A DNA stretch of 62,198 nucleotides, counting the filler, from Bonamia ostreae (Eukaryota), in assembly GCA_040357525.1 (NCBI GenBank). It is 8 parts of 8 records of this genome, joined end to end, with 100 filler letters (N's around TTAATTAATTAA, not from the genome) between each part and the next. Parts side by side here need not be neighbours in the genome. Positions count along the whole stretch, not along the records: positions 39,221 to 46,863 come from JBDODL010000074.1; 7 more parts are not named here. One strand, 5' to 3'. The position numbers were made by a program, and so were the translations under genes. Of the stretch, positions 7,909 to 54,633 are shown in pieces (within the stretch, counting starts at the first letter, position 1; each line of letters begins with the position of its first letter). A model generated the notes under the pieces. It had not been told where the DNA came from. It made no database searches and was given only the letters and a program-made list of their open reading frames with translations.

Positions 7909-8008
7909 NNNNNNNNNNNNNNNNNNNNNNNNNNNNNNNNNNNNNNNNNNNNTTAATTAATTAANNNNNNNNNNNNNNNNNNNNNNNNNNNNNNNNNNNN
8001 NNNNNNNN
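7909..8008. other. Artificial contig linker N-TTAATTAATTAA-N (also about 15764-15863, 23614-23713, 31368-31467, 39121-39220, 46864-46963, 54534-54633)
   Basis: The same roughly 100-nt spacer with six-frame stops recurs seven times. Genes are truncated at these points and segment lengths decrease monotonically. Confidence 0.97.
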
Positions 8009-12212: not shown

Positions 12213-14498
12213 TTATTTCAATGATGGATTCAACCAATATCGGCAAGCCGGACTGTCACAACACATTACCTCCTTCTCAACCCTTTTCACTGCTTCTAAC
12301 CCACAAATGCACCTTCTTAATAAAATAGTTCATAAGAACCTTTTCTTTTTCAAGTCAGATTTTTTTGCCAAACAAATGCGCACAGAACCAACAAAAATTA
12401 GGAAAAACAACATTATAGTTATCGACAAGCTATATTTAAAGAAAAAGTGCTTTTAATTTGATAATTTGCTTGTAAAAACCTTATCAGCCCAGAAATTCGG
12501 CGGATGCATTGAAGCCATTTTGCGAAAGTACTTTTTATCCACGCAACGCCAATCAGTCTTGGAGTCAAAAAATTTCCAATAACGTCCATTGGAACAAACC
12601 GCTCTTTTTACCAAAGTCTTGTCTTGAAATGTTTTGTTTTTTCTGCAATAAAAATCCATTTCACTCCCAATATGCGATTTCAAAGGTTGTTTGAAAACAA
12701 ATTTGTTTTTAAATGCCAAATTGTCACAATATTTTTCGTTTAACAAACATGCAGGAAAATTTATCTCTTCCCAAAAACCATATTGGTTGCATTTTTTGAA
12801 CACTTTTCCAATTGGGATATAACCTTCATCGCATTTTATTTCCATTAACATGCCGTCTTTTGTTTTTCGATTCAATGCAAGTTTTGCATTGTTCGTTAAA
12901 ATTCTGTCACATGGAATTCTAGCATCAGATTCTTTTTTAACGTAAAATAACTTGAAAAGATATTTTGCAGTTCTCTGTGAAGTAAAGGTTTGTTATCTTC
13001 AACCCATTGCAATGGATTCGAAGCCACAAAAAATTTGCATCTGTGGAAACTGCTAATTTTCGACACATATTTAACCGCCATTTCAATTTCAATTAAACGC
13101 GTTTCACCAACTTTAATAAGAATTTTTGATCTATTGCTGTTCAAAATCAAATTTTTTGGTAATTTGTTTGCTTTCTCGCAAAGTAGATGCAAATCTTTTT
13201 TTAATATGAGTGTATCAAAAACAAAAGAGAGAACTTATTTTGCCGCAATTTTGAACGTTGGCACTGACTATTAACTTATCATCCAAAAATTTACTAGGAA
13301 ACTGTTCAAAACTACAAATTTTCGGTACTAATTCTTGGAAAATACTGTGATTCACACAAAGAGCCGGCTTTTTCAAAACTGTTGGGACAAATTCCATAAC
13401 GTATTCATCCTTCGACAACTAAAATTTATTTTGAAACGGTCCTCATTTGATACAAACTCAGTCTATGATGAAGAGATCTATTCTGTCTGAAAATTTCATC
13501 AGCGTTAAAACGCATATATCGTTGGCAACAATACCCTTTTAGTTTATGGTTTGAGAAAACTTGGAGGCAAAAAGCAATGTTCTCCTATTTCTTGGTAAAA
13601 TACTCTGTCGCAGCCAAAATCAAGCATGTTTTTCAATACAAAAAAGCCGTTTTCTCCCCATCGAACAAAATTTACGAAACCGAAAGAAACTTGAATATTA
13701 AAGAAAACATTTTAAGAAGTTAAAGTGCTCTGATGCATCTACCAACACTGTTTTTGATACATCCCTATCATCATGTTCGAAACTCTCAGCTTTCAACGCA
13801 AAATATGTCGCTGTTTCTGAACTTTCTTTGCTGAAATTTAATAATTTTACCAAGATACTTTTGGGCATAAATTATCCTCTTCCTCGTTAAATATTTTAAC
13901 AAGTCTGCTGCAATAGTTCGATTTGCTTAAAGGCAGGATCGCCGCTTTCCAGATCATTTCTCGTGCGCTGTAAAAAACTTTCATTCTCCAATTTGTCTCA
14001 ATCCCTTTGAAATTCCCTAAAAATGTTTTAACAAACAGAGAACAAAATCGTACCCTTCCGCGTAAAAAGGGAAAGACACAGACTTTGCTTTGACCCTCTT
14101 CTCCAAAAGATCCAAATTTACGTTTGTTACGTTTTTCACGATTTTAAATCGCGTTTTCGGAGAGAAAAAGTAAATCGATTGACGGTCGATACCCTCACTG
14201 TTAAGAAACATCAACGCGATTTTTTTTGTAATGTAATTCGTTGCAATTTCGATCTGAGAACCACTGTGAGAACAAATCCCTTTAATCGGAAATAGCATTT
14301 TTCCTGCTAGAGAGCCTTTTGCCCTTATTCTTAAGACTGTCTTAGGTACAAATATCTTTCGACGTTGTTATAAAAACTTTAATGGCTTTTTTCAGGGTCA
14401 AGAAATCGTTTTTGTAAAAAAAACTAGAGATTGAAACAGGCGCGTTTGCTTTTAGTTCATTCTATTTGTTGAATTATTAAAAATATTGTTTTGTACAT
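12213..14498 (-). CDS. Putative type I membrane protein with sushi/CCP domains near the C-terminus; boundaries approximate
   Basis: ORF 12453-12875 has CDEGYIPIG...CNQYGFW...PAC plus a second CCP-like unit, followed by hydrophobic ITIMLFFLIFVGSV and a basic stop-transfer. Upstream ORFs lie on the same strand. Confidence 0.5.
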
Positions 14499-15713: not shown

Positions 15714-15863
15714 ATAAAAATATTTACTTTTTGAGCAAATATAAAAAATGAGCGTTTTTTCGCNNNNNNNNNNNNNNNNNNNNNNNNNNNNNNNNNNNNN
15801 NNNNNNNTTAATTAATTAANNNNNNNNNNNNNNNNNNNNNNNNNNNNNNNNNNNNNNNNNNNN

Positions 15864-23613: not shown

Positions 23614-23855
23614 NNNNNNNNNNNNNNNNNNNNNNNNNNNNNNNNNNNNNNNNNNNNTTAATTAATTAANNNNNNNNNNNNNNNNNNNNNNNNNNNNNNN
23701 NNNNNNNNNNNNNTTAAAAAAATTGATCAAATTGTGTACAAATTTTTGGAAAAATAAAATAATAAAAATGATGAAAAAAGAAAATACTAATTCTTATGAC
23801 AGCAAAGGTTTTCAATCCAAGATACAACTAATAAAGATAATCAATTTCTTTCAGA

Positions 23856-31367: not shown

Positions 31368-31581
31368 NNNNNNNNNNNNNNNNNNNNNNNNNNNNNNNNN
31401 NNNNNNNNNNNTTAATTAATTAANNNNNNNNNNNNNNNNNNNNNNNNNNNNNNNNNNNNNNNNNNNNTAGTAGATTAATTTTGTCTAACAATCGCATAAA
31501 TCTCTTTCAACATATTAAACAAAAACTTTTTTTGTCAATAAAATATTTCAATTTATTTTTAATTGCTAAATAAACGATAGA

Positions 31582-32442
31582 ATGGTATCAAAAATAATAC
31601 TTCTGTTTTTAACAAATATTTTGATCATGGTACAATCAGATTCCATAAACCAGGAAGTCGACGGAGACTTAAAATATGACATCAAAACACTTATATCCGA
31701 AAAAGACTGGTCTACACTATTCCCTGTTCAAGGAATACGCGGGTGCCATGGCGCAGAATTACTCTCACACAAAAACTTTGTCGCTGCGGTGGAAGAAGTT
31801 TGGGCCAAAGGCTCGAAGTTCCTCAGATCAAAAAATATGCAACAGAACCGCGTCGAGCTTGCTGCCTTCCTTGCACAAACCAGCCACGAAACTACCGGCG
31901 GATATGATGGTGCCAAGCCACCTCGCTATTTTTGGGGATACTGTTTCCCCACAGAAATATCTCACGCCAATAAATACTGCTCAGAGGCTTCAGCCGCTAC
32001 TTGCAAAGCAAACCACTACGATTGCAAGTGCGTTCCTGGTAAAGCATATTATGGAAGAGGGCCGATAATGCTAAGTTGGAACTACAATTATGGCAAATTC
32101 AGTCAAAGTTATTTCAAGGACAACCGATTGATGGCGAATCCTGATTTGCTGGAAAAGAAAGGCGATATCGCTTTTATTGCAGCTATTTGGTTTTGGTCGA
32201 CTCCCGACTATTCGAAGCCATCTTGTCATGATGTCATTCTCGGAATAACCAAACCTTCTGATGTAAGGGGGCGCGATGTCGGATTTGGATTGCTTACGGA
32301 CATCATCAATGGCGGGCTTGAATGCGGTCATGGCAATGACAAAAGGGAAAATGATCGGATTGGCTTCTATAACCACTATCTGAAGTACTTTGGAGTATCT
32401 GACAACCGTCAGAAATCTTGTGCCCATATCAGACCATTCTGA
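31582..32442 (+). CDS. Secreted glycoside hydrolase family 19 chitinase
   Basis: Signal peptide; AAFLAQTSHETTGG (catalytic Glu), WGYCFPTE, YYGRGPIMLSWNYNYG, AAIWFW, PSCHDVI, IINGGLECG, DRIGFY. Intronless. Confidence 0.95.
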   Translation: MVSKIILLFLTNILIMVQSDSINQEVDGDLKYDIKTLISEKDWSTLFPVQGIRGCHGAELLSHKNFVAAVEEVWAKGSKFLRSKNMQQNRVELAAFLAQTSHETTGGYDGAKPPRYFWGYCFPTEISHANKYCSEASAATCKANHYDCKCVPGKAYYGRGPIMLSWNYNYGKFSQSYFKDNRLMANPDLLEKKGDIAFIAAIWFWSTPDYSKPSCHDVILGITKPSDVRGRDVGFGLLTDIINGGLECGHGNDKRENDRIGFYNHYLKYFGVSDNRQKSCAHIRPF

Positions 32443-34027: not shown

Positions 34028-34513
34028 CTAATTATTTCTAGATCTTGCCGAAGCTGAGGAAAATGGGGAACCAGGCGGGCCTGGTGGTCCAGGAGGTCCA
34101 GGAGGTCCAATTAGTCCTGGTTCTCCCAATGGTCCCACCGGTCCTCCAAATCCTACTAAACCCAAATCTCCTGGTGGCCCCGGTGGCGCGTCTCCAGGGA
34201 TTCCTGGTGGTCCCGGGGGTCCTTGAGGCCCTGTTGGTCCAGGAATTGTCGCAGAGGCACCAGGAGGACCAGGGGGTCCCGGTTGACCAGGAAATCCTTT
34301 TGGACCAGTAGGACCGATAATGGACAGCCCTTCAACGCCATCTTCGCCTTGATTTCCCGGGCAACCAGGTTTTCCACTGCAGCCAGGTTCTCCAGGGGGT
34401 CCTTTTACCTTTTGTCCCGGTTCTCCCATTGCTCCTGGAGGTCCACAAGGGCCTGGCGGTCCTGGCGAGGCATCAGGCTTTTTTTCATAACAATCTTGAA
34501 AGCAATCCTTCAT
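34028..34513 (-). CDS. Short collagen-like (Gly-X-Y) protein 2
   Basis: [10 protein letters not shown] followed by triplets containing GPC, GCSG and GCP. Ser/Arg tail. Confidence 0.9.
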
Positions 34514-34755
34514 TAGTTCTTTCTATAAAATTGCAATCTTTCAAACATGTTCGACATGAAAGAAATTTAATTTATTTGGCTTTTCAATTTCGACTTTTTC
34601 AGATTTGATAATAATTCTCAAAATTTTTTTTAACTTTTCCCAAGAAGTTTTATTTTGGATAAAAATTTCTTTGAAGTATTTAAAACAACAAGAATTTTTA
34701 TTTTCCGCCTTCAATAGGAAAATGAAATTGCCAAAAGCCAAAATTAACCGAATGA

Positions 34756-35427
<672 letters not shown>

Positions 35428-38930: not shown

Positions 38931-39271
38931 GAACGATTTAGCTTTTTTTGTTTATATTTTTATATTCAAATTACCTATACTCCAAATTACTAAATCCTAA
39001 TTAGAGCTTAAAAATTTTTGATACAAATTTTTTATTTAATAAGAATTTAATCTCTCCATTTTACATTTCAAACTATATAAAAATTCTCCATTCTAATAAT
39101 GTTTACGAAGATATGTCGTTNNNNNNNNNNNNNNNNNNNNNNNNNNNNNNNNNNNNNNNNNNNNTTAATTAATTAANNNNNNNNNNNNNNNNNNNNNNNN
39201 NNNNNNNNNNNNNNNNNNNNAAAAAGCAATTCAATAATATCCAAAAATAAACAAAAAATAACGGCAAGATT

Positions 39272-42186
39272 TTAATTCGACTCATAATCTCCGGCGATAT
39301 AAATCTCGGTCTCATTTGCCTTAACTTCTGTACCCTCATCCAGCTCCGGAAACTCGTCAATATCAAGGTCTTCATTTTCTGGTATATCAAGATATTTGGC
39401 CGACACTCCGTACGCCGAAACTCCTGTCAATACTGAGACTGCCGCAACACCCAGAAAACCGTATATAAACCCATCTTTACGCGGTTCGTTATCCACACAG
39501 AAAGTGTGGGAAGAGTCCCATTCCGTCTTCACGCAAACCGGATCCGTGCCATATCTGTGATACCCCGACTTACAAGAAGTTGCACAATACAAGCCGTTTT
39601 GTATGAATCCACAATGCTCCAGAGACTTCGGGTCCGCGTTTTTGACGTTGGGTTGTTTGGTGCACGCAAAGTCGCATACACCTGCTAACTTCCATCCGTC
39701 CTTGGATGCGCAGGTGTTGTGTCCGAACTGATGTAGTGGACTGGGGCAGTCATAGGGACAATGGCCACCGATAGGGATGAGTGTGCAATCTTTTTTGTAC
39801 TTCCATTGTCTGGCCGGGGGTCTATCCTTGCAGCCGGTGAAGTCGCATTTCGCATTACTAATTATCCAAGTCGGCACATTTGGTTGAGTTCTTCCGCAGG
39901 AGATAGAACCGCTCTTCTTGTAATTAGTTAAGCAAGCGAAATTGCAGATGGCACCGATATTCCCGTTGAAGCAAGAGTTGGCTTTCGTCAATGAGGCGGG
40001 GTCTACTCCAAAGAATTTGGACGGAGCAGCAGTGCAGCCTGGGATACACCCCGTCATGGGCACATTCCACTTCGACATCGCGCATTGTGCGCGGCCGTTA
40101 GGAATTGATCCGGCAACACACATGTAATCGCAAAAGCCATTGTTGGGAGTACCCGCGCAAGCTTTTCCCGAGGATATGTCGAGATTTTTGAAATTGGGGA
40201 GCGGTATCGAGCAGCCGGCGATGCAGGCGCTGCCTTTTGACCAGTCGGGGGAATCGCAAACGAGTTTTTTTTTGTTTCGGACAAAGTTATCTTTGCATTT
40301 GTAAACGCATTCTTTGTTTTTCTCCAAACCGGCGCATGCTGAGACCGTAACTGCTACACTGTTAACAACGAGTGGCGGTTGGTTGGGGCATCCCGCGACG
40401 CACTTAGATCCTGTGTCCCATTTCGGTTGAGAAAGGGATAAACATAACATAATCTTGTTCTTGACGTTATCGGGTTTGCAAGTGTAATCGCATTTCGTCT
40501 TCGGGAGGGCGTTGACGCATTTGTCTACGCTGCCGGGTTCGGCATTTTCTGGTAAAGAAGGTTTGGACCTGCATCCATGTTGGCAGCCCCACGAGGTAGT
40601 CCAAGTGCCTGTTACGGGGTCGCACTTAAGTATTCCATTGGTCACGAGCGGTTCGTTGCATTTGTATGGGCATACGTAATCGATGTCTTTGTTAATGCAG
40701 CCTTTTATCGATTTGGGATCGACGCCGAATTTTGTAGGAGGGAATTTGTCGCATCCTTTTTGATTAGAAATTAAAGTTTTTTTCGCAGCAAATTAAAACT
40801 ACTTTTTATAAATTGAAAATTGCAAGATAAAAATTGCTGAAATATTGCGTTGTTTTGGGCAAATTAGAAAAACTTGAACACTTTCCGGTCCCAGACCAAC
40901 CGCGAGGTGGCACCGTGCAAACAAAATTTTCAGTTCTGGCATAGCCCGGTTTACATGAAAAATTGCATATTTTCCCCACCTGCGCAGAGCAATGTTCAAC
41001 CGAGTGGGGATCTGAGTTTTCAACACTCTTCTTCGGCGGAGCAGAGCAGCCTTAAAAATCAACGTTTTTGGTCAAACCTGAAACGCACGAAGAATCAGAG
41101 AATATTCCGCCGCTCATGCATTGCAAAAGTTTGTCTGGCACGTACCCTTCAAAGCACTTATAACCGGAGCAAGGTTTTCCTACAGGAGTGTTTTTGCACA
41201 AGTGCGCGTTTGATCTAAAGATTTCTGGGTTGTAGTCACATTTGGTGATGCACATGGGCGGCTGGTTGCATTGACTCACACAAAATGAATTGTGTGTCCA
41301 GTTCCCGTCGTTTTCGCAAGCCGATTTGCCCGTTCCGACAGACATGTAGTTCTTGATACAGGTCAAAGGGCATTTAAAATCATGACCTTTGGTAATGCAA
41401 TCATCCGGAAAATTTCCAAATTCGACTTTTGCTGGTTTTCCGATGCAAACATTTTTTACTTCGAGCACCTTCTGTAAAAGGTCTTGTACCACCCAGTAGA
41501 TGTTTCCCGTGTCTTGGAAATTGATGGTTTGGATTCCTAAGTTCAAATTACGGATAACAGTGTTACTCGTTTGCTTTTCGGATTCGTCCTCTGTATTATT
41601 AAAATTGTGTTTTTAACAATCACAAAATTGTTTAAAACGGTTTGTTCAAAAATTTTAACCTGGTATGTACACGATGAGACCTTTTTCGCGAAGTGTTTGA
41701 ATGAGGTTACCGGATGCACTCGCATCGGCAATTTTGGAGTCCGTTACAATAACAACGAGATGTTTTCCGAAACGTTTATCAGTTATATCTTTCACTTTTC
41801 GGAGACATGATTCCAGATAAGTCTTATCTGAAGCTATTTTCATTATTTGTGATAAATTTTTGAAAAAAATTTGTCATTTTATTCAAGATAAAACATTTGA
41901 GATCCAAAGATTTTAACTTATCATAAAATTTATCTTCGTCAAAGGTTGGTTGTAAAACAACTTCCGCCTTGTCTGCAAAACTTATCAAAGCACTATAAGG
42001 TTTTCCTTCAAGGTTTGCAGTTTGTGTGTATACTTCAGTTACAAAATCATGAAGAAAATCTTTCATATTCATTAGATCCATAGAATAGGAGGTATCTGCA
42101 CAAGTCGTGAGAGTAAACAGACTTTTTGGATTTTTGGCATCCAATTTGTTCCAAAGAAGAGCGAAGAAAATAATATTTAAACACAT
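39272..42186 (-). CDS. Type I membrane adhesin: signal peptide, VWA (MIDAS), about 10 sushi/CCP-like Cys repeats, TM, acidic tail
   Basis: ADTSYSM (DxSxS), ALISFADKA and VIVTD for the VWA; repeats of C-x-P..C..G..C.Y.C..G....C...W..C; TM FIYGFLGVAAVSVLTGVSAYGV; tail DIPENEDLDIDEFPELDEG...GDYESN*. The ORFs are joined by GT-AG introns. Confidence 0.82.
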
Positions 42187-42388
42187 TAATTGGTTTGGTT
42201 GATAGATTTAGAATTATTAAATTTAAAATTGCATTTCAACGGTTTAGTTCGAAAAATTATATATTAAAATGGTTATTTTATATTTTGATTTATTTCTAAA
42301 AAGTTAGAAAACGTTTAACATTTTTTAAATATTAGAAAGAACGATTATAACTTCAAAACATTTAATTCGTTAAGTTTGTAATAAGCTT

Positions 42389-43951
42389 CGTTGCGGTTTA
42401 GTCATTTCCAGAGCTCCCCTTCCATATTTGTAGTCTCATCTTTAATTTGCTTTTTTGATGTTATGTTTGTAATGAATACAAAATATTTTCGTGTTGTTTT
42501 TTCAGTTAAATTAGATTTAATCAAATCTCCTCCGATCATGTCGGGCGTCCTTCTTTTTAGGAGTTTATATTTCTAAAATTAAGGCGTTCTGTTACAATGT
42601 TGGAAGTTCTTATTTTGTAGGGTGGAGAATTAACGGGATCTATTAATTCTGTACAACCTCATCTCAATTTTTCCGCTAATCGAAGGATATTTTATAGAAT
42701 TGTTTTTATATTTCGAAACCATTTTACAAAATTGGTTTTCAGACCATGTAAAAGTAAATATTAAAAATTGGCGATTTGCAAAGTTTCAGATTAAAAAAAT
42801 AAAATTGCATTTTTTAAGAATTTCTAATTGCTTTATCGCCAGAAACGAAATTTCTTTCTCGTTTTCAACAAGAAACTCTTCCGTTTTCGCAAAGCCGGAA
42901 AACGCTCTTTTTCTTATTGGCGAAACTTGTTCAATGACCAATTTGCTAATTTCGTCTTTAAAATCTTTTTTGTTTTTGCGTTCTCTTAAAAGACTTTCTA
43001 TGTTTTTGCTATCTTCGTTCCGAAGTGCACTGAAAAATTAAATATTTGAACGCGAAGATGTTGATAAGATTGGACATCGCAATTCGTTTTTCGCCATTTT
43101 TCGAGAATCTGGATATTCCTTTCTCGGAATCGGTTACCGATCGGTTGATTTTCTTGACTATTGTCGAGTCGCCATCGGTCAGATAGATGTTGCCTTTGAA
43201 ATTAGTTTTGTCTGCTTCTTCGCCCATGTCATTTTCTGGGTTCTGCAGCGATTTTATCGGTTCGTTTAGAGTTGAAAATATCTCTTTATAAAAAAGTTCC
43301 TGTTTTCCTTCTTTTTTCTTGATTTGGGACAGAAGAACGTTTTTTGTTTCTTCGTACAATAATTTGTCTCTCTGGGTGGTACCGATGAATAAATGTGTTG
43401 GTTGAATAGCTTGAATAACAGCAGAGTAAAGCAATTTGCTGTAAAGTTGGATCAAGTTTTTATTTCCGATTTTGAGAGGGCATCCGAGTATCCAAGCGAT
43501 ATCGAAAATTTGACGTATTTTGGACAACCTAAAAATTTTTGTGTTGGAAGCATCAAGACCGGATGCCAGCAACGTCGATGTTATTGACTCGAAATTTGTT
43601 TTCGCGTTATCTTATAAGATTGATTATTTTGTTGTTGAAACTTTCCAAATTTAACTCGTAAAATTGAGACTTTCACAAGTTCATTTTTGTAAAAAGAATT
43701 GTAACTATAAAAAACTTGAAAAAATTAAATCTTTCTCCAAAAACGAAACGGTGTCGGCAATGCAAATATACAAAATATTCGAATTCGCCAAATATTTGAG
43801 ATTTTTGACCGTCCCCAAATACGATCCCAAATGAATTCCTTTTTTGACCTAACGAAAATAATAGTTTAAACCCTGAAAACACACAAAACATTTTTTTTAA
43901 TTTTTCCCGCCATTTTGAACAATCCGCAGGTAAATTCTTGCAATTTAACAA
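42389..43951 (-). CDS. Hypothetical multi-exon protein
   Basis: Minus-strand ORFs 43673-43951 and 43009-43572 plus downstream K/E-rich frames. No family recognised. Confidence 0.35.
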
Positions 43952-44076
43952 CGCAACCTATTATAAAGAAACGATATAAAAAGACTTTTGCTATTCCCGC
44001 CTAATTTTTAAAACGGTTTTATTCACAAAAACTAAAACGGAAACCGCAACCCGCAATAATTTTAAAACAACTGCTG

Positions 44077-45006
44077 ATGAACGAGACAAGGACATTATCG
44101 GAAGCGAGTAAACTCGCCGAAAAAATTGATCGCGCTGAAAAAGAAGGAAAACTGGACGAAGTGGCCGACGCGACCAAAAGTTTAAAAGCGTTGCTCTACA
44201 AATATTCAACTCCTTCGGAAAACTCCATCAACGAAAAAAACATTTCATTTTTTCTGCTCTCGCGTTTCGCATTGGAAGTCTCAGCTCTGACCGATCTGCT
44301 CAAAAAGGATTTTTTGGGCTTCGAAAACAACGTCAATATTTTGATTCCTTTTTATTTCGATCTCAACGAGTTTTCTATTTTCCTAAAATCAATCTTCAAA
44401 AATGATCGAATTTTATTTTAAAATTTTTTTGGAAAAAACTAAATTTTAAAAAATAGCAATTTGGAGAATTCTGATAAAAAAGAGTTGATTTTAGGACTTG
44501 TGTTGTTACATTACCTCTCCGAAAACCGGACAGCGGCTTTTTACAATTTGTATGAAAAAATGGACAGAGCAACCTCCGGAAGCCAAAATGTCCGATTTGC
44601 GCTGCGGATCAAAAAATGTTTGGATCGGGGCTCTTATTCTCACATTCTCAATTGCTACTGCGAATTGCCGTCTCCGTTCTACGGCTATTTGATGGAGTCG
44701 CTTATAAAATCGACAAAGTTCTGAGCGAATTTTAACCAAAAAAGGGCGAAAATTTTCGAAGCGATGGAAAAAAGCAAATCAGAAATGACGAAAGAATCGA
44801 TGATAAGAATAGCAGGAACGGAGTTAACGGCGGAGGATGTCAAGAAATTGGGAGAAGAGAGGAAATGGAAAGTCGATTCGGAAGGAACGGTTCATTTTGA
44901 GGACGAGAATTCGAGTTTGACCAAAGAACAATTGCTAAACAAAGCTTCAGACAATCTGATGAGTTTGTCGTACGCCCTCGTTAAGGACTCCGAACGGATC
45001 GTATGA
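44077..45006 (+). CDS. RPN12: 26S proteasome lid subunit RPN12/PSMD8
   Basis: SRFALEVSAL, FENNVNILIPFYFD, ILGLVLLHYLSENRTAAF, LDRGSYSHI, PSPFYGYLMESL and C-terminal SYA..SERIV. Two introns. Confidence 0.9.
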
Positions 45007-45009
45007 TAA

Positions 45010-45250
45010 ACTTTTTATGACAAATTTGTAAATTGCCAAAACTTTTGCGATTTAATTGATAAAACTTTTGCGATTTAATTGATCAAAATGATAAAACTTT
45101 TGCGATTTGATTGACAAATTTTTGCAAATTAAAGAAAATTTGTAAATTGAATTGATAAAATTGATAAAACTTTTGCGATTTATTTTATAAAACTTTTGCG
45201 ATTTGATTGACAAATTTTTGCAAATTAAAGAAAATTTGTGAAAATTGCAA
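45010..45250 (+). repeat. Intergenic degenerate minisatellite (AAAACTTTTGCGATTT[A/G]ATTGA)
   Basis: The AAAACTTTTGCGATTT core recurs at least five times between convergent genes. Confidence 0.8.
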
Positions 45251-45256
45251 GTCAAT

Positions 45257-45665
45257 TTAGTCATCAATGTCATAACCAGATAGATGAAAACTCTCTATCG
45301 ACCCTTTCTTCGACTTTTTTCTATTTGCAACAATTCGCGCTCTTATCAAAATGGGATTCTTCTCTTCCTCTTCTTTCATTTTTTTTCTCATTCGCCATTT
45401 CGTCAATATCTTTGGCTCAGCTGCAAATTCATCCCGCCACGAATCTCTGCTGAACAATGCCAATTGAACATTTAAAAACTAAAATTCACAAAATTTTTCA
45501 ATGGCACTTTTCTCCATTTGTCAAATAAATTGTGGACTTTATTTATTTTTATTCTAGCAATCTATGTTAACGTTAAAGCTCTATTCTTTTTGTTTAACGA
45601 TCATTTGTTTCTTTAAAGATAACATTGTTTCGTTTTTGCAACCTATTAAAGTAAAATTAATCCAT
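45257..45665 (-). CDS. Small basic hypothetical protein
   Basis: ORF 45257-45463 plus probable upstream mini-exons. Confidence 0.35.
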
Positions 45666-46203
45666 CTTCAATATTTACTCTCAAATTTTTACGCCATTTT
45701 TGGGAGAGGCGATCTACTCAAAACATTAATTTTTGATAGATAATTTTTGCAAAATGATTAATTTCTTTGAATGACGTTAAAAAATTTGTGAATTATTTTA
45801 ATTATTGTTAAAACAATCCGTTTCAGTGCAGAAATTTAGTGCAAAAACTTTTACAATCGTTTGGCGTTAGCAGATTTTTGCAAGAAATCGCGTTGGGTAA
45901 AAGTTAAAGACGGATTAAAAATTTATCCAGACAGATTATCGTCTTTTAGATCAATATCAAGCGCGTCAATAAACAAAAAATTTCAAAATAAGATGAGTTT
46001 TATTTTTCAGAAAATGGCAAAATGTTGTGATCAAAATTTTGAAAAACAAAAATTTGCAAATTTTACATTTTGATCGAGTCGAAACTTTCATTTGAAATTG
46101 GTCATTTTTATACTAAAATTGCAATTTTGTAAAATTGGTCGTTTTTTTACTTTTTCAGCATTAAAAACAAAATAAAAAAATGTCAAAAAGAGCGGATCAT
46201 TTA

Positions 46204-46572
46204 TTAAATATTGCTTGGATACAGATAAACGCGCACTCTTTCTCCAATAGCTTTGGCCGGCAAATTTTTGACAAATTTTGCTCTGACAACACCGCTGTTG
46301 CCGTGAGGCCGCATGACCTTTCCGACCATTTCTCTTTTGTCGCCATTCTTATCGCCTTTGTAGACATAAGCGATTTTCTTTCCGATGTAGAAATCGACGT
46401 CTTTTCTGGTTTTAAGGCCATCTATCTCGATTAAGGCGATGTTCATGTTCTGAACTCGTCTGGATCGCTTATATCCCAAGAAAACTCCGTGGCAATAAAG
46501 CCGAGTCGGTTTTTTAAAAACTCGTTTTTGTTTTGTCTTTCTGGTTTTCTTTGTCTTGTCAGAGCGGGACAT
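46204..46572 (-). CDS. RPL35A: 60S ribosomal protein eL33 (L35a)
   Basis: [60 protein letters not shown]. Confidence 0.97.
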
Positions 46573-47029
46573 GTTAAAAATTAGCAAGTTTAGGTTTAGA
46601 AAGGCCGTCTAAATATAATAATTCTCGTGTTCGAAAATAGCTTTTAAATTTAACTTTGTTTTTTTAATATTTTTGTATAAAAAATAAAGTTTCCAAATAA
46701 CGAAATAAAATTTGTCTTTGAAAATGGAGCCTCACAAAAATAGAGCGAAAATTAAAACAAATTTAGACTTTCTACTCCATCAAAATTAAACAGAAATCAA
46801 TAAAACAGTCACAAAAATAAAACAGTGATTTAAAATAACAAAAAAAACAACTTCCAATAAATCNNNNNNNNNNNNNNNNNNNNNNNNNNNNNNNNNNNNN
46901 NNNNNNNTTAATTAATTAANNNNNNNNNNNNNNNNNNNNNNNNNNNNNNNNNNNNNNNNNNNNAACAAACCAAAATTTCGCAATAAAAAAGAACACACCA
47001 AATTTTCTACATCTCAACAATAAACAAAA

Positions 47030-48169
47030 ATGCAAATTATAATCTTGATTTTATGGCTATCGCTGCTTTCTAGTTCCGCCGCCAAGAAAACAACGAGTGA
47101 CAAAGCAGAAAAGTGCCACAGCATCGGAATCGACTACCGCGGCAAACTCAACAAATCCATCTCGGGGAAGCCTTGCAAAGTCTGGCCCTCTTTTTACATC
47201 TACACCTTCCCCGGCTCCGGCGTGGGCCCGCACAGTTTCTGCAGAAACCCGCTCGGAAAAATGGACGGTCCTTTCTGCATCACGAAACTCGGCTTGAAAG
47301 GCAAAATGGACGAAACCGAGCGATGCAACGTCACGTGCGCGCCAGGAATGATCCAGCGCAAACTCGACCACGTCTGCGAAACGGTTGTGAAAGAGTTCGA
47401 CGTTGGCACGCTCCAGAAATGCGTGGAATCTTGCATGAAGAGCAAAGATTGCACTGATCTCTCGTTCAAGACCGGCGGAAGCTGTTATCAATGCGCGAAA
47501 AAAGACAGGGGCCGGAAAAGAAGTGGTTACGACATGTTCGCCCATTTCGACATGAGCAAACTGAATCATTGCAAAGTGTCCAAATCGGTGCGGCGCAATC
47601 GCCTTCTCGACTCCAGCGAATGCACTGACGGCGCCGCGTCCGAGGATTGCGTCATCATGTGCAGGGCAGGCTACGTAGGAGACGTGTCGGTTAAGTGCAA
47701 AAAAGAAGGCACTGAGTTTGAAATAAAGTCGGATTGCGAGATGGGGTGCTACTTGGAAGCCGCCGATGCGAAGCCGATGATGGACTTGCGCAACTGCCAA
47801 AGTTCGAACCGGAAACTAGTGAGTAAGAAGGATTGCGTCATCTCTTGTCTCTCAAAACTGGGCGAAGTGGAGGTAAAGTGCAAACGAGCAGGCGCTGCGT
47901 TTGAGGTGACAGAGAGATGCAAAGTGCCCAAATGCAAAATTAATTTTGTAAGGGACAAAGCCGAATTGAAAAAGATCGATTTGGGCGACTGCGACACAAA
48001 GAAGAGTGGACCGATTCTGTTAGAACAGTGCAATCCGCTCTGCAAAGAGAAATTTAAAGGAACTGTCGTTCCGAACTGCAATCCGAACGGATTTTTTGAC
48101 TTAAATGTGCATTGTTTCGAGGAAGAAAAAGAAGAGAAATCAAAAAAAATCAAAAAAAAGAAAAAATAA
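47030..48169 (+). CDS. Secreted kringle + PAN/apple + Cys-rich repeat protein with Lys-rich tail
   Basis: Signal peptide; kringle CHSIGIDYRG..SISGKPCKVW..HSFCRNP..GPFC..C; PAN-like CVESCMKSKDCTDLSF..C; three Cys-rich modules; ends KKIKKKKK*. Confidence 0.85.
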   Translation: MQIIILILWLSLLSSSAAKKTTSDKAEKCHSIGIDYRGKLNKSISGKPCKVWPSFYIYTFPGSGVGPHSFCRNPLGKMDGPFCITKLGLKGKMDETERCNVTCAPGMIQRKLDHVCETVVKEFDVGTLQKCVESCMKSKDCTDLSFKTGGSCYQCAKKDRGRKRSGYDMFAHFDMSKLNHCKVSKSVRRNRLLDSSECTDGAASEDCVIMCRAGYVGDVSVKCKKEGTEFEIKSDCEMGCYLEAADAKPMMDLRNCQSSNRKLVSKKDCVISCLSKLGEVEVKCKRAGAAFEVTERCKVPKCKINFVRDKAELKKIDLGDCDTKKSGPILLEQCNPLCKEKFKGTVVPNCNPNGFFDLNVHCFEEEKEEKSKKIKKKKK

Positions 48170-54533: not shown

Positions 54534-54633
54534 NNNNNNNNNNNNNNNNNNNNNNNNNNNNNNNNNNNNNNNNNNNNTTAATTAATTAANNNNNNNNNNN
54601 NNNNNNNNNNNNNNNNNNNNNNNNNNNNNNNNN

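Follow-up and report, generated by a model that had tools for sequence, protein, structure and literature searches.

Integrin I-domains and TRAP are familiar examples of VWA adhesion domains, which grip an acidic residue of their ligand in a metal-dependent manner. VWA and CCP (sushi) domains also occur together in one chain in complement factor B/C2, secreted proteins with the order CCP-VWA-protease and a C-terminal serine-protease domain, and in SVEP1, a secreted chain of 3,500 amino acids (aa) with EGF, HYR and pentraxin domains. The TRAP and MIC2 adhesins of intracellular alveolate parasites combine an N-terminal VWA domain bearing a metal ion-dependent adhesion site (MIDAS) with an extended stalk of thrombospondin repeats (TSR), a single transmembrane (TM) segment and a short acidic tail, for which passages of one study give a conserved C-terminal Trp (PMC4427158). 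Here, we describe MHBO_000470 of Bonamia ostreae, a rhizarian parasite that has wrecked European flat-oyster stocks. The gene lies in a window of 62,198 nucleotides (nt) in which contigs are strung together; N-TTAATTAATTAA-N linkers separate them, and adjacency across a linker is not genomic. Its product is likely a surface adhesin-like protein and one of a diversified family of paralogues, and the cytosolic tails of this family share a motif, [DE]-P-x-I-x-[IVL], which, judging from its conservation, is very probably a selected binding site.

In outline MHBO_000470 is a TRAP-class adhesin-like protein, yet it is not TRAP. It shares with TRAP/MIC2 the N-terminal VWA domain with MIDAS, the extended stalk, the single TM segment, the short acidic tail and an intracellular parasite as its source; its stalk, however, consists of ten six-Cys CCP modules, and no sequence relationship was found beyond the VWA fold. 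The TRAP-like architecture proposed in a preliminary description, made from the sequence alone, is supported only in part: the order of VWA, stalk, TM segment and acidic tail is confirmed, and the TSR and the Trp of TRAP are missing. With respect to factor B/C2, the order here is VWA-CCPx10-TM-tail and Pfam gives no protease match; with respect to SVEP1, the protein has only 879 aa and Pfam matches no EGF, HYR or pentraxin domain, and MHBO_000470 is placed with neither. It is best classed as an adhesin-like surface protein, because a single gene combines type I architecture, an intact MIDAS, a CCP stalk and an acidic tail, has paralogues, and has, among the 26 database matches, no VWA-bearing orthologue in a named free-living organism. 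The features of the locus are collected in Table 1.

Table 1. Features of the MHBO_000470 locus, in coordinates of the window.
Feature	Position	Strand	Basis
Whole gene, 5 exons, 879-aa type I membrane protein (P0001)	39272..42186	-	translation and RNA contigs
Exons 1-5	42186-41895, 41833-41660, 41590-41078, 41050-40874, 40755-39272	-	
Intron 1, 61 nt, GT-AG	41834..41894	-	skipped in RNA contigs, spliced frame
Intron 2, 69 nt, GT-AG	41591..41659	-	skipped in RNA contigs, spliced frame
Intron 3, 27 nt, GT-AG	41051..41077	-	skipped in RNA contigs, spliced frame
Intron 4, 118 nt, GT-AG	40756..40873	-	skipped in RNA contigs, spliced frame
Probable signal peptide with a short hydrophobic core, aa 1-17	42136..42186	-	judged by eye; paralogue N-termini similar
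VWA domain, interrupted by introns 1 and 2 (about aa 23-200)	41457..42120	-	Pfam VWA_2, structure matches
MIDAS DxSxS, D31-T-S33-Y-S35	42082..42096	-	alignment with five related VWA domains
Remaining MIDAS residues T102, D129	41822-41820, 41741-41739	-	
Stalk, ten six-Cys CCP/sushi modules, aa 204-807	39491..41447	-	module alignment, HMM, predicted fold of modules 5-6
TM segment, aa 815-838, Gly/Ala/Ser-rich	39398..39469	-	
Acidic cytosolic tail, 41 aa, 15 D/E	39275..39397	-	
TEIYIA, aa 868-873, Pro-less form of family tail motif	39293..39310	-	aligned with paralogue motifs
3' UTR, 13 nt, up to poly(A) site	39259..39271	-	one RNA contig of run X2 with a loose poly(T) end at 39259
Linkers	7909-8008, 15764-15863, 23614-23713, 31368-31467, 39121-39220, 46864-46963, 54534-54633		

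The spliced frame runs from an ATG at 42186 to a stop codon at 39274-39272 and agrees at every letter with P0001, named in its source as hypothetical protein MHBO_000470, Bonamia ostreae. Transcript evidence consists of contigs from public RNA runs, four of the six listed runs being placed on the window. All four introns are skipped in these contigs, which overlap to link the VWA exons through to the last exon; no single record spans the gene end to end. X5 contig 12 joins 41833-41660 to 41590-41489 across intron 2, whose splice connects the VWA core to the exon where the stalk begins, X1 contig 6 bridges 41348-41593, and X5 contig 11 extends from 41480 to 39422 through introns 3 and 4. RNA contigs crossing all introns rule out that the VWA and sushi parts are separate genes, so the one-gene reading of the preliminary description is confirmed. 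An alternative in-frame 27-nt GT..AG just before the MIDAS Asp was dropped, since RNA contigs cover 41895-42174 without a gap. The poly(A) tail starts 13 nt past the stop codon. The transcript is present in runs labelled mollusc metagenome and is therefore made in an oyster-associated phase.

MHBO_000470 opens its contig, and the linkers on either side limit its true neighbourhood to 39221-46863; genes to the left are not neighbours. An eL33 gene on the same contig is closer to protist and plant or fungal chains (E about 1e-32) than to those of animals (1e-29 to 1e-28), which shows that the contig does not derive from the oyster; host contamination is ruled out by these matches together with the CCP module type and the compact AT-rich introns.

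The VWA domain exceeds the Pfam VWA_2 cut-off (E=1.6e-8, 35.6 bits, cut-off 27), and a structure search with it in the Atlas returned VWA-type matches throughout (TM score 0.59-0.64). All five MIDAS residues (D31, S33, S35, T102 and D129) are present, in agreement with the intact DxSxS noted earlier. The stalk modules are 56-68 aa long and follow the pattern C-x(13-20)-C-x8-C-x3-C-x(10-12)-C...W...C, with six Cys in eight of the ten; the first two have seven each and lie on either side of a short linker that itself holds additional Cys. Pfam Sushi is weak and below its cut-off here (E=9.5 on the whole protein, 0.003 and 0.03 on single exons), a cut-off that close relatives exceed. Modules 5-6 (40214-40573), modelled from a 28-row alignment with pLDDT 95.7, were compared with 48,161 chains by VIA-align, and all eight matches at Z>=5 were CCP pairs, DAF being the best (Z 6.6, rmsd 4.4, 115 aligned residues); values of Z under 8 are modest, but the matches are all of one kind. 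Single modules superposed on CCP structures with rmsd 2.5-3.2 over 55-59 residues, and the Foldseek rows were likewise CCP proteins, none at E<=0.001. The stalk modules are thus predicted to have the CCP fold, in line with the long array of sushi-like modules first described and with the HMM search and structure prediction proposed at that time. The TSP family is absent from the three Pfam matches at E<=10, and the ten CCP modules account for the whole stalk. A single-sequence fold of the whole length reached pLDDT 30 and was discarded.

The TM segment (aa 815-833) has a hydropathy of 1.85, with Gly/Ala/Ser at 8 of 19 positions. This richness in small residues, remarked on in the preliminary description, applies to MHBO_000470 itself and is not a family trait, as 8 of 12 TM segments have at most 5 of 19 (range 4-10, with 10/19 in C6). 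The tail, correctly anticipated as short, acidic, about 40 aa long and ending in GDYESN, has its 15 D/E against 2 K/R. Its subterminal aromatic residue is a Tyr at -4, not a Trp, and the position is unfixed in the family.

At least six genes of the B. ostreae genome combine VWA and CCP domains (one each on C73 and C6, a tandem pair on C562 and two on C565). Sushi matches number at least 32, on some 20 contigs, and there are many more CCP membrane proteins than VWA+CCP genes. The search for paralogues suggested earlier therefore yielded a family, with DxSxS intact in four of six aligned VWA domains, and VWA identities of the relatives to MHBO_000470 of only 15-24%. Among 1.84 billion representatives, 26 proteins matched MHBO_000470 at E<=0.001. 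The 20 looked up of the 25 other matches comprised two Bonamia paralogues, three proteins of Polykrikos kofoidii, one of Mercenaria and others without an organism name, and Pfam VWA was found in one of the 25 (P0024, Bonamia). A further match, P0003, has the same VWA-CCP-TM-tail order, with a VWA domain recognised as degenerate by alignment, and its best match in the B. ostreae genome is MHBO_000470 (E=3e-40, 34%). The check for orthologues in free-living relatives returned no VWA-bearing one in a named free-living organism among the 26 matches. A word-indexed search among longer proteins for relatives returned MHBO_000470 only, as did a four-sequence profile search, a weak one in which the profile's own other rows were not recovered.

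The multi-CCP proteins of Polykrikos kofoidii (P0002, P0011 and P0012) have the same six-Cys spacing as the Bonamia modules, but lack a tail of this kind and any Pfam VWA match. With a profile built on the ten stalk modules, 32 modules were found in P0002 and none in the Mercenaria sushi protein, and the C-x8-C-x3-C spacing occurs 39 times in the Polykrikos kofoidii protein and not once in that of Mercenaria. The module type is therefore shared with free-living dinoflagellates, while the whole architecture has been seen only in Bonamia and one relative, P0003. This does not prove a restriction, as the sampling of free-living Endomyxa is probably thin. The Bonamia VWA+CCP family is apparently an undescribed adhesin-like family and a new form of a known design.

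Several further loci belong beside this family. Tandem VWA+CCP pairs lie on C562 (L007) and C565 (L021/L024). On each of these contigs the last 17 residues of the second gene are identical to those with which C5957 (L004) starts, and the array has accordingly been duplicated recently or is collapsed in the assembly. Long CCP-array surface proteins of other subtypes, reaching 800+ aa in one frame, occur on C193 (L052), C229 (L047), C239 (L045-L046), C98 (L162) and C288 (L147), and the Bonamia surface seems to be dominated by CCP arrays. In the window, 12456-12992 (-) is a further Sushi-domain membrane gene with a short, basic tail lacking the family motif. An intron-free frame at 47024-48169 (+) has a signal peptide, a kringle (E=7e-7), a PAN-like Cys stretch and CCP-like modules, and its product is a candidate surface or secreted adhesin.

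Seventeen Bonamia CCP membrane genes have a readable C-terminus, and 12 of these have tails of at least 30 aa; C98, C288, C69, C1707 and C229, with short, basic or no tails, are left out of the tail counts. Together with the Logan proteins P0003 and P0004, the 12 long tails make a set of 14. The motif [DE]-P-x-I-x-[IVL] is found in eight of the 14 against 0.37 expected, a count reached in none of 30,000 shuffles, and in seven of the 12 long Bonamia tails (expectation 0.31-0.37 across sets); after merging close kin it is present in 6 of 11. The instances are PEIFII, PEIRID, PSIRVD, PEIKIE, PEIMIH, PEIVLS, PDILII and PVIYIK, each preceded by D/E, and the tails upstream of them have a median identity of 15%. 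In the background, 3 of 265 other frame ends match. Two tails were read after the pattern had been fixed, and one of them matched (C212, PDILII; p=0.017). The tail of P0003, the closest relative of MHBO_000470, ends in DPVIYIK. The acidic I-x-I core is kept without Pro in MHBO_000470 (TEIYIA), C1054, C46 and P0004, and the tails of C5069 and C842 match neither form. The motif is absent from three TM-bearing matches of free-living type or without a name (P0014, P0020 and P0025). The tail of C565 (L030:1478-1810) has two copies of the motif, PEIYFI on the membrane side and PEIKIE towards the C-terminus.

We tentatively propose, on the form of the motif, that the docking partner of these tails is calcineurin. 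The docking consensus of this phosphatase is given in passages of PMC4654906 as Px[IVLF]x[IVLF][TSHEDQNKR], binding by beta-augmentation with P1, P3 and P5 in hydrophobic pockets, and an excerpt of PMC6677818 describes a membrane-protein tail, that of NHE1 (PVITID), bound to beta14 of calcineurin A. The published consensus is matched by 6 of the 14 family tails, and two more match only P-x-I-x-[IV]-x. This looser pattern is ELM-like. The membrane proteins NHE1, KCNK18 and AKAP5 and the viral A238L have a PxIxIT in a disordered tail, and 8 of the 14 family tails have a pattern of this type in acidic, low-complexity cytosolic sequence; none of those proteins is an adhesin. B. ostreae encodes calcineurin A, split over C1787 and C1906 (best PDB matches calcineurin), and calcineurin B on C6280. 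In its beta14 strand (L058:1092-1229, C1906) it reads L-K-V-K-Q-F, as against M329-N-I-R-Q-F in human. Among 59 readable calcineurins from 69 metagenome loci (ten being unreadable), 48 have N-I-[KR] at this place and only two have Lys first. A homologue search with the calcineurin exon gave a PP1-like and a PPEF-like protein, not calcineurin. Calcineurin is required in host-cell attachment of Plasmodium, according to an excerpt of PMC8355824.

In the mechanism that we envisage, the protein would pass through the secretory pathway to the parasite surface, where the MIDAS would hold Mg2+/Mn2+ and grip an acidic residue of a hemocyte, host or matrix ligand. Selectin-type repeats have six Cys and are likened here to the six-Cys CCP modules, a likeness not confirmed in the source from which the length is taken. 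Nine repeats give P-selectin about 40 nm in the part of PMC7355470 concerned, and ten CCP modules would by comparison form a spacer of roughly 35-40 nm, capped by VWA whereas selectins are capped by a lectin and an EGF domain. On the cytosolic side, the beta-strand motif of the tail would dock one parasite protein, most likely calcineurin A through its PxIxIT groove, and adhesin tails would anchor the Ca2+-activated phosphatase under the contact site. The tails have few Ser/Thr (1-6), and would therefore be anchors rather than substrates. In MHBO_000470 the motif has lost its Pro and would bind weakly or differently. Location, ligand, partner and role in uptake are all inferred here. Taken whole, our preferred explanation is a MIDAS-dependent surface adhesin family whose cytosolic tails conserve a docking motif with calcineurin as its likeliest partner, and we regard it as possible rather than established; the fuller proposal, that haplosporidians independently evolved a VWA/CCP adhesin family docking calcineurin through PxIxIT-type tails of graded strength, matched by a basic K-V-K strand, is more doubtful.

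A number of observations weigh against this explanation. The calcineurin link is weakest for MHBO_000470 itself, whose TEIYIA fails both the published and the looser pattern, as do the tails of C1054, C46, P0004, C5069 and C842; PEIFII and PDILII fit the looser pattern only, and the tails of five further CCP membrane genes are short, basic or absent. The Thr of PxIxIT is in no family motif, and no LxVP-like word was found in 11 of 12 tails examined, which, with the missing Pro and the K-V-K in place of N-I-R, sets the family apart from known PxIxIT membrane proteins. The diverged beta14, being more positively charged, may suit the acidic flanks of the motifs, or may mean a changed groove or specificity. 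The motif pattern was chosen after the first tails had been seen, and regular expressions overlook flanking effects on docking motifs, as stated in an excerpt of 10.1101/632547. A complex prediction for the MHBO_000470 tail, which counts neither for nor against the link, scored 0.02, in a run without alignments or controls and with a tool not validated on peptides; it used the catalytic domain of a stand-in calcineurin A (L067, from a metagenome contig), picked for its K-I-K in beta14 and for having the top score against the Bonamia exons. As for the ectodomain, the signal peptide was judged by eye only, and the MIDAS is degenerate in P0003 and C562a.

The main rival to a calcineurin dock is a trafficking signal, in which the acidic tail and its [DE]-P-x-I-x-I end would serve COPII exit from the endoplasmic reticulum or adaptor sorting to secretory organelles, the haplosporosome for instance, and which we consider less likely. 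The COPII signals are IxM and DxE. The location of the motif at or near the C-terminus of many cargo-like proteins, including another CCP subtype (C239), would agree with such a role, as would tails full of di-acidic words and the acidic I-x-I core, found in 10 of 12 tails against 2.8 expected and kept in the Pro-less TEIYIA, HEIFVV and QIEIIH. In the portion of PMC3812028 concerned, Toxoplasma MIC2 reaches the micronemes by means of acidic tail motifs that contain Tyr (SYHYY, EIEYE). However, [DE]xxxL[LI] is found in none of the 12 tails and YxxPhi in three, and six of the 14 tails keep close to the calcineurin consensus, having Pro at position 1, Ile at 3, Ile/Val/Leu at 5 and a polar residue at 6.

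Less probable still is that the family consists of surface or wall proteins with a role other than entry, such as plasmodial or spore cell-cell adhesion, contact with the vacuole membrane or antigen-like variation, with the tail facing either parasite or host cytosol. Six-Cys CCP arrays are common in free-living protists, and the family members vary widely in module number and MIDAS state. The RNA contigs differ from the window at 13 letters between 39589 and 40642, all in stalk modules 4-10, and the encoded residue is altered at 8 of 12 variable codons, with clustering at aa 572-576. As 9 of the 13 listed differences are non-synonymous, about the neutral ratio, and as there is no control gene, positive selection on the stalk is not claimed. 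A long stalk bearing an intact MIDAS is how ligand-gripping receptors are usually built, and the presence of the transcript in oyster-associated material also argues against a non-entry role.

Very unlikely, in our view, is a convergent TRAP/MIC2-like invasin, in which an aromatic acidic tail would couple to the actin-myosin motor and the TM segment would be shed by a rhomboid. Besides the domain order and the small-residue TM segments of MHBO_000470 and C6, this reading can draw on the 9 of 14 tails with Phe/Tyr at one of the last five positions (5.3 expected, p=0.03), on a rhomboid gene with a GxSG serine motif on C216 (L027/L033) and on myosin heads on six contigs of the genome; rhomboids and myosins, however, are common in eukaryotes. 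Trp is found among the last five residues of none of the 14 tails, the aromatic residue moves between -2 and -5, most family TM segments are not enriched in small residues, and Pfam finds no TSR. A conserved acidic/aromatic tail, looked for among the paralogues, was thus not recovered, as the aromatic position is unfixed; a different motif is conserved. Passages of PMC6104086 portray uptake as the joint work of hemocyte and parasite, and no report of gliding was met in the literature. The rhomboid gene on C216 is cut by the contig end and, on the same strand, immediately follows a Sushi-module gene.

The complement-like mimic of the preliminary description, taken here as a mimic or decoy that is possibly host-derived and imitates factor B/C2 or complement regulators so as to become opsonised or to block thioester proteins, is the least probable of all: the modules have the regulators DAF and factor H as structural neighbours, the only PDB sequence match is C4b-binding protein (E=0.02) and a C2-like Sushi+VWA cluster heads the ranking of an Atlas feature search (0.90), but human CCP proteins dominate the PDB and the neighbours, DAF included, therefore show only the fold, while no protease domain was found by Pfam, the order is reversed relative to factor B/C2, the modules are of the dinoflagellate type and not that of Mercenaria, and the eL33 gene places the contig outside oyster DNA.

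Both hemocyte and parasite are active in the internalisation of Bonamia, with HSP90 implicated, and in the parts of PMC6104086 and PMC9329632 concerned HSP90 is the only parasite protein tied to uptake. Comparative genomics of Ascetosporea reports hundreds of unannotated signal-peptide clusters and names no adhesin in the portion of PMC11069148 concerned; the words willebrand, sushi and adhes do not occur in the main text of that paper or of PMC9329632, as far as it was available, and the supplements may list such domains. We did not find a VWA+CCP adhesin family of Bonamia in print, in a search that left subscription literature largely outside. The family provides concrete candidates for the host-cell grip of Bonamia and a third-party solution, outside Apicomplexa, to the VWA-stalk-TM-acidic-tail design. 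The proposed link between adhesion and Ca2+/calcineurin signalling is testable and bears on the calcineurin control of parasite attachment; if it is true, adhesins and calcineurin would be in direct physical contact, and there would be a first molecular handle on the part of Bonamia in its own uptake by oyster hemocytes. Possible uses include diagnostics and, through the ligand, the breeding of resistant oysters.

Other genes in the window were also noted. The upstream neighbour of MHBO_000470, at 43009-43611 (-), is divergent and has a weak match to class I (W/Y) tRNA-synthetase (E=7e-5). Two short head-to-head collagen triple-helix (Gly-X-Y) genes, over the Pfam Collagen cut-off, lie at 34028-34522 (-) and 34756-35427 (+), and 31570-32439 (+) encodes a secreted-looking GH19 chitinase (Pfam E=1e-58), which is unusual for an intracellular oyster parasite.

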